A stretch of DNA of 64,000 nt from Eledone cirrhosa (lineage: Eukaryota). Positions 28,742 through 45,846 of the stretch are shown one piece after another; positions within the stretch are counted from its first letter, which is position 1; every line of letters starts with the position of its first letter. Where the stretch lies: assembly GCA_964016885.1 (NCBI GenBank), contig OZ024745.1, forward strand, positions 19,096,001-19,160,000, read 5' to 3'. The position numbers and the translations under genes are program-made. Under the pieces are notes generated by a model. That model was not told where the DNA came from. It was given only the letters and a program-made list of their open reading frames with translations, and searched no databases.

Positions 28742-29219
28742 GATATTGACAAATGGAAACTATATTTATAAAACCATATTTATTTCATTATACATATTTC
28801 AAGGACACCAAGTTAAATTATGGTGTGCTTTCATCAGATAAAATATAATATAGAGCAGTTTTATAAATAAATATTGACATACTCTTAAAGAATGTTATGC
28901 TCTCTCTCTCTTTTTTTCTCTCTTTTTTCTCTCTGTTATTCTGCTCTCTCCCTTTCTCTTTCTCAGTAACCTAACGGCTTATTTAAAAATATCCAATACT
29001 AACTTACCTAATACTATAAGTATAAATATAACTCCACTATCCAGGAGCTTCCAACAGTAATGCTTGCATTCTTTAAGGGTATGTCAATATTTATTTATAA
29101 AACTGCTCTATATTATATTTTATCTGATGAAAGCACACCATAATTTAACTTGGTGTCCTTGAAATATGTATAATGAAATAAATATGGTTTTATAAATATA
29201 GTTTCCATTTGTCAATATC
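28742..29219. mobile_element. Fold-back Penelope-pLTR-like insert with 153-bp inverted arms (28742-28894 / 29067-29219)
   Basis: The arms are near-perfect reverse complements and each contains a hammerhead motif. Confidence 0.8.
29116..29180 (+). ncRNA. Minimal type-I hammerhead ribozyme 1
   Basis: UAUUUUAU-CUGAUGA(29124)-helix II AAGCACACCA/UGGUGUCCUU-GAAA(29161)-UAUGUA-UA|AUGAAAUA; helix I is 8 bp including one G.U. Confidence 0.8.
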
Positions 29220-29400
29220 GTATATGTATATATATATGTATATATATATGTATATATATATGTATATATTGTATATATGTATATATATATATATGTATAT
29301 ATGTATATATGTATGTAGGAGGTGAGTTTTATTGTAGTACAATAAAGTAATGCAGATATCGGATAAGAAGCACTCTACAGTTTGTAGGACTGGAGTATAC

Positions 29401-29675
29401 ATAATATAAGATCAAAAGATGGTTAAAGGAGTTCCATGTATTTTATTATGCGCATTTCAAAAACAAACATCATCATGCAATAATATTTGTGTTTTCATCA
29501 GATAAAACAGGAGATTTAAAACTGCACTATCCACAAGTGTTTTTTAGCCTTCATATCATGTTCTCCTGTTTTATCTGATGAAAACACAAATATTATTGCA
29601 TGATGATGTTTGTTTTTGAAATGCGCATAATAAAATACATGGAACTCCTTTAACCATCTTTTGATCTTATATTAT
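29401..29675. mobile_element. Fold-back Penelope-pLTR-like insert with 114-bp inverted arms (29401-29514 / 29562-29675)
   Basis: The arms are reverse complements around a 47-bp spacer and contain a hammerhead motif. Confidence 0.8.
29568..29636 (+). ncRNA. Minimal type-I hammerhead ribozyme 2
   Basis: GUUUUAU-CUGAUGA(29575)-AU-rich helix II-GAAA(29618)-palindromic UGCGCA-UA|AUAAAAU; helix I is 7 bp. Confidence 0.8.
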
Positions 29676-29794
29676 ATATGTATGTATATAGATATATGTA
29701 TATATGTATATATATGTATATATATATATGTATATATATATGTATATATATGTATATATGTATATGTATATATATGTATATATATATATATGTA

Positions 29795-40878: not shown

Positions 40879-43303
40879 TATATATATATATATATTTATA
40901 TATATATATATATATATATATATATATATATATATATATATATATATACGCATATATATATATATATATACGTATATATATATATATATATATACGTATA
41001 TATATATATACGTATATATATATATATATATACGTATATATATATATACGTGTATATATATATATATATATATATATATATATATATATATATATATACG
41101 TATATATATATATATATATACGTATATATATATATATATATATATATATATATATATATATATATATATATATATATACGTATATATATATATATATATA
41201 TATATATACGTATATATATATATATATATACGTATATATATATATATATATATATATATATATATATACGTATATATATATATATATATATATATATATA
41301 TATACGTATATATATATATATACGTATATATATATATATATATACGTATATATATATATATATACGTATATATATATATATATATATATATATATATATA
41401 CGTATATATATATATATATATATATATATATATATATACGTATATATATATATATACGTATATATATATATATATATATATATATACGTATATATATATA
41501 TATATATATATATATATATATATATATATATATATATATATACGTATATATATATATATATATATATATACGTATATATATACGTATATATATATATACG
41601 TATATATATACGTATATATATATATATATACGTATATATATACGTATATATATATATATATACGTATATATATATACGTATATATATATATATATACGTA
41701 TATATATATATATATATATATATATATATATATATATATATATATATATATATATATACGTATATATATACGTATATATATATATATATATACGTATATA
41801 TATACGTATATATATATATATATATACGTATTTATATACGTATATATATATATATATACGTATATATATATATATATATATATATATATACGTATATATA
41901 TACGTATATATATACGTATATATATATATATATATATATATACGTATATATATACGTATATATATATATATATATATATATATATATATATATATATATA
42001 TATATACGTATATATATATATATATATATATATACGTATATATATACGTATATATATACGTATATATATATATATATATATATATATATATATATATACG
42101 TATATATATATATATATATATATACGTATATATATACGTATATATATATATATATATATATATATATATATATATACGTATATATATATATATATATACG
42201 TATATATATACGTATATATATATATACATATATATATATATATATATATATATATATATATATATATATATATATATATACGTATATATATATATATATA
42301 TATATATATATATATATATATATATATATACGTATATATATATACGTATATATATATATATACGTATATATATATATATATATATATATATATATATATA
42401 TATATACGTATATATATATATATACGTATATATATATATATACGTATATATATATACGTATATATATATACGTATATATATATATATACGTATATATATA
42501 TATATATATATATATATATATATATATATATATATATATATATATATATATATATATATACGTATATATATATACGTATATATATATATATATATATATA
42601 TATATATATATATACGTATATATATATATATACGTATATATATATATATACGTATATATATATACGTATATATATATACGTATATATATATATATACGTG
42701 TATATATATATATATATATATATACGTATATATATATATATACGCATATATATATATATATATATATACGTATATATACGTATATATATATATATATAAT
42801 ATACGTATATATATATATATAGGTATATATATATATATATATATATATATATATATATATATATATATATATATATATATATATATATACGTATATATAT
42901 ATATATACGTATATATATATATATATACGTATATATATATATATATACGTATATATATATATATATATATATATATATATATATATATACTTATATATAT
43001 ACGTATATATATATATATACGTATATATATATATATATATACGTATATATATATATATATATACGTATATATATATATATATACGTATATATATATATAT
43101 ATATACGTATATATATATATATATATACGTATATATATATATATATATACGTATATATATATATATATATACGTATATATATATATATATACGTATATAT
43201 ATATATATATACGTATATATATATATATATACGTATATATATATATATACGTATATATATAAGTATATATATATATATATATATATATATATATATATAT
43301 ATA
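40879..43303. repeat. ~2.4-kb (TA)n tract punctuated by TACG
   Basis: Read directly. The same type occurs at 44609-44788, 44846-45287 and 45847-46207. Confidence 0.95.
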
Positions 43304-44609
43304 CGCTCAATATGCAAATTAGGCTGCTCAGCCGTTAATTTTCATAAGGAAAGTATATACTTTCGAACGTTCAACTATCTGGCAGATGGGTAAACGGTGC
43401 TGATGATAGCTAACAAGCTTGAAACTAGTACATCGTTCCTGTGTCAGTGTTGAACAAAAAGGTGACGTGGTTGCCTTAACACCGTATGGCATAAATTCAG
43501 GCTGTTCAGTTTGTTTACAAACGAACAAAGCGACGTTAGCGCCGCTAAACTGATACGTGCATATATGTATGTGTACCTGTATGCATATGTATATATATAT
43601 GTATATATATATATATATGTGCATGCTACTGTACGTCTGTATACATATATGTATGTACGTATACATGCATACTTACATTTAAGTAAGTGCCATACTAAGA
43701 GTGAGAAATGAAATTTCGTTTTCATTTTGTTTCAATTTATCGTTTTCGGTATGCCTGACCGATTTAACTCACTCAATATGCAAATTAGGCTGCTCAGCCG
43801 TTAATTTTCATAAGGAAAGTATATACTTTCGAACGTTCAACTATCTGGCAGATGGGTAAACGGTGCTGATGATAGCTAACAAGCTTGAAACTAGTACATC
43901 GTTCCTGTGTCAGTGTTGAACAAAAAGGTGACGTGGTTGCCTTAACACCGTATGGCATAAATTCAGGCTGTTCAGTTTGTTTACAAACGAACAAAGCGAC
44001 GTTAGCGCCGCTAAACTGATACGTGCATATATGTATGTGTACCTGTATGCATATGTATATATATATGTATATATATATATATATGTGCATGCTACTGTAC
44101 GTCTGTATACATATATGTATGTACGTATACATGCATACTTACATTTAAGTAAGTGCCATACTAAGAGTGAGAAATGAAATTTCGTTTTCATTTTGTTTCA
44201 ATTTATCGTTTTCGGTATGCCTGACCGATTTAACTCACTCAATATGCAAATTAGGCTGCTCAGCCGTTAATTTTCATAAGGAAAGTATATACTTTCGAAC
44301 GTTCAACTATCTGGCAGATGGGTAAACGGTGCTGATGATAGCTAACAAGCTTGAAACTAGTACATCGTTCCTGTGTCAGTGTTGAACAAAAAGGTGACGT
44401 GGTTGCCTTAACACCGTATGGCATAAATTCAGGCTGTTCGGTTTGTTTACAAACGAACAAAGCGACGTTAGCGCCGCTAAACTGATACGTGCATATATGT
44501 ATGTGTACCTGTATGCATATGTATATATATATGTATATATATATATATATGTGCATGCTACTGTACGTCTGTATACATATATGTATGTACGTATACATGC
44601 ATACTTACA
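43304..44609. repeat. 466-bp tandem repeat, ~2.8 near-identical copies, MITE-derived
   Basis: Identical pseudo-ORFs start at 43328, 43794 and 44260 (period 466); the unit is a diverged reverse complement of 46205-46663. Confidence 0.9.
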
Positions 44610-45285
44610 TATATATATACGTATATATATATATATATATATACGTATATATATATATATATATACGTATATATATATATATACGTATACGTATATATAT
44701 ATATATATATACGTATATATATATATATACGTATATATATATATATATATACGTATATATATATATATATATATATACGTATATATATAAACGGAAAAAA
44801 TGAAACGAAATTTCATTTCCCAGTCTTAGTACGGCTGTTACTTAAATATACGTATATATATATATATATTTATATATACGTATATATATATATATATATA
44901 TATATATATATATATATATATATATACATATATATACGTATATATATATATATATACATATATATACGTATATATATATATATATATTTATATATACGTA
45001 TATATATATATATACGTATATATATATATATATATATATATACGTATATATATATATATATATATATATTTATTTATACGTATATATATATATATATATA
45101 TATATATACGTATATATATATATATATATATATATATATATATATATATATATATACGTATATATATATATATATGTATATATATATACGTATATATATA
45201 TATATATGTATATATATATACTTATATATATATATATATATATATATATATATATATATATATATATATATATATATATATATAT

Positions 45286-45846
45286 ATAAAATATTTAAAA
45301 AATAATGAATAAACCAATGAAACAGTTCCTTATATTAAACAAAAAAAGTTCATTATTTAACGATCGTTTCTGGGATATATATGTGTTAGAATTGGCATGT
45401 ATATTTAACAGATCTATGTACAAAATTATACAAAATTATACAAACTATCAAAATTAAATATACATACCAACTCATATATATGCCGTCTTCAGAAATAATT
45501 ATTATTTCTGAAGACGGCATATATATGAGTTGGTATGTATATTTAAATTTGATAGTTTGTATAATTTTGTATAATTTTGTACATAGATCTGTTAAATATA
45601 CATGCCAATTCTAACACATATATCCCAGAAACGATCGTTAAATAATGAACTTTTTTTGTTTAATATAAGGAACTGTTTCATTGTTTTATTCATTATTTTT
45701 TTAATATTTTATCTTGACTCTGTATTCCGTTTATCTTTCACCGAAAGTGATTTTTCATTGCATCTCTTCTTTCCATGATATCCGGATTACATTGAGTTCT
45801 TCATACGGATTGGACACTACCGTAAACTCTTGGTAGATTTATCTAC
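45286..45846. mobile_element. ~427-bp near-perfect palindrome (45286-45712, centre 45500) with a unique 3' extension; pLTR-like
   Basis: AGAAATAAT-T-ATTATTTCT centre; the arms differ by a few substitutions and one TA indel; contains a hammerhead motif. Confidence 0.82.
45501..45646 (+). ncRNA. Type-I hammerhead ribozyme 3 with a long helix II
   Basis: AUUAUUU-CUGAAGA(45508)-113-nt self-complementary insert (GAGUUGGUAUGUAUAUUUAA / UUAAAUAUACAUGCCAAUUC)-GAAA(45628)-palindromic CGAUCG-UU|AAAUAAU; helix I is a perfect 7 bp. Confidence 0.75.

Follow-up and report, generated by a model that had tools for sequence, protein, structure and literature searches.

Previous studies of Penelope-like elements (PLEs) that encode an endonuclease (EN+ PLEs) describe an inverted, 5'-truncated copy beside a pseudo-long terminal repeat (pLTR), a tail at one end and an insertion bias to (TA)n (PMC8557442), as well as head-to-head pLTRs, solo pLTRs and initiator-like motifs (PMC3846280). 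In Schistosoma, pairs of hammerhead ribozymes (HHRs) on opposite strands, 100-700 bp apart, are tied to truncated PLEs and show low self-cleavage (PMC4209133). In the Poseidon element of Anolis carolinensis (PAc), two internal start sites of the reverse transcriptase (RT) define the tail and both target strands are extended; RNA beyond the start sites is required, while HHR cleavage is dispensable (PMC11167929). The transcription start is placed inside the pLTR (PMC2377424, PMC8557442). Here we analyzed three non-coding fold-back inserts in a 64,000-nt stretch of the 3.0-Gb Eledone cirrhosa genome (the window; G000:C5:19096001-19160000). Their fold-back layout is already published for PLEs, and the inserts are expected PLE debris. 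The new element is a family-specific, fixed 5' boundary of such fold-back stubs, called the wall below. We found no description of such a wall in the literature searched, mostly without subscription papers or supplements; these families or plots of 5' coverage may be contained in the supplements of PMC8557442 and PMC11167929.

The three inserts had been described in an earlier note on this DNA as sharing long inverted arms beside (TA)n within one cadherin intron, and both points are confirmed. On the + strand, the cadherin exons break off at about 25033 and continue in phase 0 from 46783 (...DYTLT|IMAKDNG...); therefore, all of the elements lie within one intron. Because an inverted-repeat search of the whole unmasked window was swamped by (TA)n, we masked the purine-pyrimidine microsatellites before self-BLAST, which recovered the inverted arms of inserts 1-3 and of a coding PLE, together with a fourth fold-back and a 466-nt tandem unit. 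The arms of insert 1 (28747-28894/29067-29214) are 99.3% identical, those of insert 2 lie within 29397-29679, and those of insert 3 lie within 45290-45708 with 97.4% identity; (TA)n adjoins all three. The bounds first assigned to insert 3 stand, but inserts 1 and 2 are longer than was thought (Table 1), and each has a tail on one side only, at 28670-28741 and 29319-29400 on the - strand, respectively. The tail of insert 3 occupies 45714-45846 on the + strand.

The three inserts are pLTR ends of autonomous PLEs joined head-to-head, not a separate element class. Elsewhere in the genome, the family 1 pLTRs flank RT plus GIY-YIG frames in three loci (L031, L032, and L034), the family 2 pLTR flanks a 752-aa RT plus GIY-YIG frame in L103, and the family 3 pLTR flanks a 705-aa frame with a frameshifted N-terminus, again RT plus GIY-YIG, in L099. 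The proposal that three PLE families gave rise to the inserts by truncation is thus borne out by arms joined to an open reading frame (ORF) in every family. The sequences are not unrelated, as had been stated: insert 1 is similar to insert 2 in its core and helix I, and the parent ORF of family 2 shares 46% identity with that of family 3 and 58% with that of family 1. In tandem copies, the tail sequence continues into the ORF; the repeats are spaced by 4.0 kb (L031), 3.7 kb (a pair on contig C1), and 5.9-6.1 kb (L099 and another C1 pair). Genome-wide, we counted at least 1,279, 1,487, and 1,986 exact matches to the arm-end/tail junction of families 1, 2, and 3, respectively, and a microsatellite follows 88 of the 90 sampled tail ends.

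By motif rather than phylogeny, families 1-3 are placed among the Hydra-type PLEs with a C-terminal EN. Their proteins, read by eye, share with the Hydra clade (PMC8557442) the CxCX5C linker, the CxxC and CxH motifs in the EN and the lack of CCHH; HHRs and (TA)n insertion are likewise common to both. The RW[R/T] and DKT motifs of that clade appear as RWR/RWT and SDKT in families 1 and 2, and as RWR and HSDK, the latter at the frameshift, in the family 3 locus L099. The units measure 3.7-6.1 kb here, in contrast to generally <3 kb in the clade, a typical rather than a defining size. Compared with the published EN+ PLE insertion units (PMC8557442, PMC3846280), the head-to-head pLTRs, the optional tail on one arm, the (TA)n target and the solo pLTRs are the same, whereas about half or more of the sampled copies are solo fold-backs here, most of them bounded by a fixed 5' site, and the tails are ~80-150 nt long instead of 30-40. 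Two arrangements in the parent loci were observed in addition. In L103 (2380-2460, element orientation), the HHR and the greater part of the tail are missing from the upstream pLTR, which nevertheless stands ahead of the 752-aa frame; this loss is a short-homology deletion, and a spliced intron was rejected, the gap having no GT-AG ends. In L093, a family-2-like 3' untranslated region (UTR) and pLTR start are fused to a family 3 UTR upstream of the family 3 unit, a possible chimera or nested insertion.

For the wall, we took the first 29-30 copies per family on contig C1, chosen solely by the arm-end/tail junction, located their 5' ends by comparison with a natural long copy and scored the farthest 5' end of each insertion. 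Homology searches, which are ranked by query likeness and biased to the query ends, were kept out of the counts. Two rows were dropped, L211 (same insertion as L210) and L329 (same place as L092), and the denominators leave out 5, 10, and 3 insertions of families 1-3 that run past -600. In 15/24, 12/20, and 10/27 insertions of families 1, 2, and 3, respectively, the farthest 5' end is no more than 6 nt away from a fixed C|A site, while an exponential-truncation null (20,000 draws) places at most 8, 8, and 9 insertions in its best 13-nt window. Counted from the HHR core, the wall is 88, 69, and 7 nt upstream in the three families, in each case at a pyrimidine-C|A and 120-140 nt upstream of the predicted HHR cut site. 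Adjoining fold-backs account for 19/29, 16/30, and 17/30 sampled copies, and most of them have an inverted arm without a tail; both arms are at or inside the wall in 16, 13, and 12 of these. On the 3' side, the stubs have two fixed ends, the arm end and the tail end. None of ten ORF-joined pLTRs starts at the wall (8 extend beyond it and 2 begin inside; not a random sample).

The inserts of the window differ in this respect. Both arms of insert 3 begin at the wall (about -7), and in insert 2 the - arm starts at -13 and the + arm at -60, both inside the family wall at -69. In insert 1, the - arm starts 57 nt upstream of its own core (at 28894) and the + arm starts 229 nt upstream (28895), beyond the wall at -88. 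Inserts 2 and 3 therefore fit the wall-limited class, and insert 1 is an ordinary truncation plus inversion. Short reads aligned to a long natural copy of family 3 show the boundary as well. The contig depth, which is not a copy number, rises ~10-fold near the wall in read set X1, possibly the assembly's own sample, and a similar step is present in X4, which has a different organism label and comes from a different study. One X4 contig has a loose end at the wall that reads as the inverted arm, and 62 molecules of the reduced-representation set X24 end at the wall. Two origins of the 5' ends were rejected: HHR cleavage, the cut sites being ~120-140 nt downstream of the wall, and an RT-stalling hairpin, the upstream 85 nt folding at only 0 to -10 kcal/mol.

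With moderate confidence, we regard the fold-backs as head-to-head pLTR ends that are likely dead-end products of RT running off the 5' end of its RNA template. We infer that the wall is the RNA 5' end, which is probably the transcription start. The RNA would begin at the wall and carry the HHR, the tail, a downstream motif and the ORF. Within the first pLTR of this RNA, the RT would prime from two internal sites, one at the arm end and one at the tail end, on both nicked strands of the (TA)n target; the two short cDNAs would run off the RNA 5' end and then be joined end to end, sometimes after trimming. The HHR would be carried along passively in the stubs, which would be unable to move again, and long and tandem copies would need a read-through RNA, a circle or a strand transfer. 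The arm junctions differ from insertion to insertion in families 1-3, and at the wall junctions of L142, L148, L179, and L186 the terminal letters are reiterated, as expected for RT at a template end. PAc shares with these families the two fixed 3' ends, corresponding to two RT start sites, the AT-rich target and insertion ends that are not defined by the HHR cut, but it belongs to another clade, and the HHR and tail of families 1 and 3 precede the start of the ORF; no fixed 5' boundary of genomic copies is described in the available text of PMC11167929. Just past the tail, we could name a candidate RNA signal for the RT-EN protein: a TGCTCC motif located 11-17 nt beyond the tail is common to families 1-3 (L031, L103, and L099) and missing from 90/90 sampled stub ends. 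Families 1 and 2 additionally have a downstream GTTGAGCGCTT in common, which may be part of the same signal. Since the wall is met by solo stubs and not by ORF-joined pLTRs, it provides base-level predictions for the RNA 5' ends and for an in vitro assay, and is a possible clue to how PLEs rebuild their end repeats.

Several points weigh against this reading. The wall predicted for family 5, the fourth fold-back, is absent and its ends are scattered; in family 4, that of the coding PLE, 4/30 copies form no more than a loose cluster between -63 and -48, while 12/30 run past -684; therefore, the wall is not general. The sequence contexts, read by eye, show no consistent TATA box or downstream promoter element (DPE) at the walls, and a DPE match in insert 3 is confined to a minority variant. 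The wall position was picked after viewing the data (the null scans for its best window accordingly), the samples are consecutive copies from one contig, and at palindromic junctions the ends given by BLAST carry an uncertainty of several bases. The putative RNA 5' end at the wall is read from DNA, and the in vitro mechanism was worked out on a Poseidon-clade element (PMC11167929) instead of a Hydra-type one. In addition, the variants shared by the two arms of an insertion are explained equally by snap-back copying or by later gene conversion.

The last point bears on a rather unlikely rival, in which a single cDNA extends to the 5' end of the RNA, folds back and copies itself, and the endonuclease resolves the hairpin; in a variant proposed in PMC3846280, antisense RNA self-primes. 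The wall would still be an RNA end, but with only one priming event. Arms of the same insertion carry the same subfamily variants in 27/31 and 28/30 pairs, against 35% and 40% between insertions, which points to one source per insertion and keeps this rival alive, as do short overlaps at the junctions. Among the members of the family 3 variant set, 16 were chosen for their similarity to the window, and the set probably also contains some duplicates; in its unbiased subset, 13/15 arm pairs share the variants. A usual origin of the two arms from different templates is thus not borne out, the exceptions being L079, whose arms come from two subfamilies (6 differences), and weakly L085. L079 itself speaks against self-copying. 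So does the geometry of the arms: the inverted arms have a sharp limit at the arm end (99, 105, 206), and the arm without the tail exceeds the other in length in 11 vs 2 fold-backs of family 1 and 7 vs 3 of family 2, which under self-copying of the tail-bearing arm needs an extra deletion. It is quite unlikely that the wall is instead an RNA processing site, such as the 3'-end cleavage of a read-through transcript whose downstream piece serves as the template. Cleavage at CA is typical of polyadenylation, and in family 3 an AATAAA ends 8 nt before the wall, but families 1 and 2 have no AATAAA at the usual distance and the pieces downstream of 3' cleavage are normally degraded.

A further reading, very unlikely in our view, takes the stubs as non-autonomous retrozyme- or short interspersed nuclear element-like elements with their own pLTR promoter, mobilised in trans; non-autonomous retrozyme-like derivatives had also been suggested in the earlier note. 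The high copy number (at least 1,279, 1,487, and 1,986 exact junctions), the near-fixed size and the ability of the D. virilis 3' pLTR to drive transcription (PMC2377424) are consistent with it. Like non-LTR retrozymes (PMC7229834; bioRxiv 10.64898/2026.07.22.740005), the inserts are non-coding and PLE-related and have type-I HHRs with a short palindromic helix III, but they are non-tandem, have a single sense HHR on each strand and align colinearly with the ends of autonomous PLEs. A single sense HHR per transcript yields no circular monomer, no head-to-tail arrays of stubs were present in the loci examined, and the junctions are private to each insertion. The conserved post-tail sequence of the ORF-joined copies, located where PAc needs RNA (PMC11167929), is found on 0/90 sampled stub ends. 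A miniature inverted-repeat or foldback DNA transposon was rejected, the junctions being private to each copy and the arms being PLE pLTRs. Recombination between the two pLTRs of full-length elements, by which the solo pLTRs of A. vaga have been explained (PMC3846280), is highly improbable as a source of the solo stubs, for it needs upstream pLTRs starting at the wall, and none of the ten does. We give almost no credence to fold-backs produced as long-read or assembly chimeras. Sequencing and assembly are known to run into difficulty at palindromes beside (TA)n, and in L071, a family 3 fold-back, the host flanks are mutually inverted as well. However, the arms differ at a few sites, the tail is one-sided, the flanks in the window are not inverted, and the wall and the inverted loose end recur in the X4 short reads; fold-back sequencing chimeras, the case named in the earlier note as fatal to its reading, are largely refuted by these arm differences, tails and reads.

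The minus-strand strong-stop DNA of retroviruses and LTR elements is a short, fixed-length cDNA primed close to the 5' end of the RNA. Going beyond RT run-off itself, PLEs may pass through a comparable step, the thousands of fixed-length fold-backs being failed transfers, although we consider this speculative and on balance doubtful. RT would start only where the ORF-proximal motif follows the tail, near the RNA 5' end, and the first short cDNA would reach as far as the start of transcription; switching to the 3' pLTR copy, or using an HHR-cut circle, would then give the long or tandem copies and regenerate the pLTR. If so, the walls would chart RNA 5' ends from DNA alone. The likeness is an analogy and not membership: the stubs would be target-primed on two strands, with no tRNA primer.

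We ran a relaxed type-I HHR descriptor on 22101-64000 and obtained 10 matches, compared with 0 in each of 100 block-wise dinucleotide shuffles. The 10 cores comprise both arms of inserts 1-3 (6), the spacer of the fourth fold-back (1) and the tandem array (3). As had been claimed, type-I cores with a paired helix I (7-9 bp) and a 6-nt self-complementary loop III are present on both arms of all three inserts. Insert 3 is atypical, with a 113-nt stem-II domain, a C.A mismatch at the stem-II base and a core buried in the minimum free energy (MFE) fold. In the predicted MFE folds of the monomeric HHRs, helices I and II are present in inserts 1 and 2 and insert 3 misfolds. The core pattern is intact in 22/26, 26/28, and 21/22 of the copies that span it in families 1-3. 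An Rfam scan of the window, one of the checks proposed earlier, gave no HHR family among the best 150 of 406 rows, which are only sub-threshold miRNA-hairpin matches arising from (TA)n and the palindromes.

The earlier note had also suggested that each ribozyme is masked by its antisense copy upstream, so that the intron tolerates the insert. The geometry agrees: the sense core of each of inserts 1-3 is predicted to be wholly paired with the upstream arm in the MFE fold of the full insert (-252, -199, and -326 kcal/mol, vs about -10, -11, and -39 kcal/mol for the HHR alone), and therefore the host transcript would hide the HHR. A selected or tolerance role is unsupported; masking is automatic because the arms are joined head-to-head, and it is probably not selected. 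Dimer cleavage in cis within a fold-back is impossible because the two cores are on opposite strands.

The 466-nt tandem unit found by self-BLAST is a different case. By its unit layout, we class the array as a non-LTR retrozyme, and it agrees with the retrozyme definition of bioRxiv 10.64898/2026.07.22.740005. Its three cores are 466 nt apart, sense to the host gene and in a dimer-capable arrangement. The array has no antisense copy upstream, and its 79% antisense copy is located ~2 kb downstream, which weighs against a need for masking. Such HHRs are reported as poor self-cleavers in the monomeric form (PMC4209133, PMC11167929). The window thus reveals a very abundant retrozyme family with PLE-style inverted arrays, here sense-strand in an intron: we found 23,586 exact core matches genome-wide, in units of 420-540 nt that form head-to-tail arrays, often with head-to-head inverted halves. 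Its helix I variants mostly retain pairing, and a U.U occurs at the helix II base. In Xenopus, retrozymes are reported to be depleted from introns, though ~43% of the copies are intronic (bioRxiv 10.64898/2026.07.22.740005).

The coding PLE of the window, family 4, was said to have the same layout as the inserts. The fold-back part holds, with inverted arms (38784-39025/40586-40827) that are 100% identical and lie beside (TA)n, but the HHR part does not. The core at 40585 has no stable helix I, and its 3' side differs among copies; it fails the HHR descriptor because helix I is missing, and the inverted arm ends one base before the CUGA C. The RT-EN frame (38893-40215) stops early within the EN and is followed by a tail at 40828-40878. 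Pfam did not recognise this frame, and its identification rests on motifs: a CX4CxxC linker and a CCHH-type EN set it in a group distinct from families 1-3, Neptune- or Nematis-like by motif. In the fourth fold-back, family 5, the HHR core at 28403 sits in the spacer outside the arms and has a 4-bp helix III. This family has 102 exact matches genome-wide with scattered truncation points, and no linked ORF was found in the six loci translated.

Table 1. Positions of the analyzed features in the window
Feature	Position	Strand	Remarks
Host cadherin intron, phase 0	25034..46782	+	Contains every element listed
Fourth fold-back, family 5	28059..28589	-	Arms 28156-28291/28454-28589; not in the earlier note
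Insert 1, family 1 pLTR fold-back	28670..29219	.	Parent ORFs in loci L031, L032, L034
Type-I HHR of insert 1	29116..29180	+	CUGAUGA at 29124, predicted cut after 29172; mirror core 28837 (-)
Insert 2, family 2 pLTR fold-back	29319..29679	.	Parent ORF in locus L103
Type-I HHR of insert 2	29567..29637	+	Core 29575, predicted cut after 29629; mirror core 29501 (-)
Tail-only family 2 fragment	38662..38751	-	96.7% to 29319-29408
5'-truncated coding PLE, family 4	38777..40878	+	Inverted arm, RT-EN frame, minimal HHR, tail
Retrozyme array, 466-nt non-coding unit head-to-tail	43308..44482	+	Type-I cores 43400, 43866, 44332; not in the earlier note
Insert 3, family 3 pLTR fold-back	45286..45846	.	Parent ORF in locus L099
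Atypical HHR of insert 3	45499..45648	+	Core 45508, predicted cut after 45639; mirror core 45492 (-)
Diverged (~79%) retrozyme unit copy	46209..46623	-	Self-BLAST

Other repeats were observed in the window. A 21-kb low-complexity tandem repeat (942-22059) occupies a different cadherin intron; its stop-free frames reach up to 7,060 codons on both strands, and it is probably a non-coding satellite. Fragments of non-LTR retrotransposons, with RVT_1, Exo_endo_phos, and PHD matches, are located at 26396-27847, 32697-35411, 47485-48054, and 56710-57483. Minisatellite arrays with 57-nt (50688-53998) and 58-nt (58979-61308) units lie within later cadherin introns.

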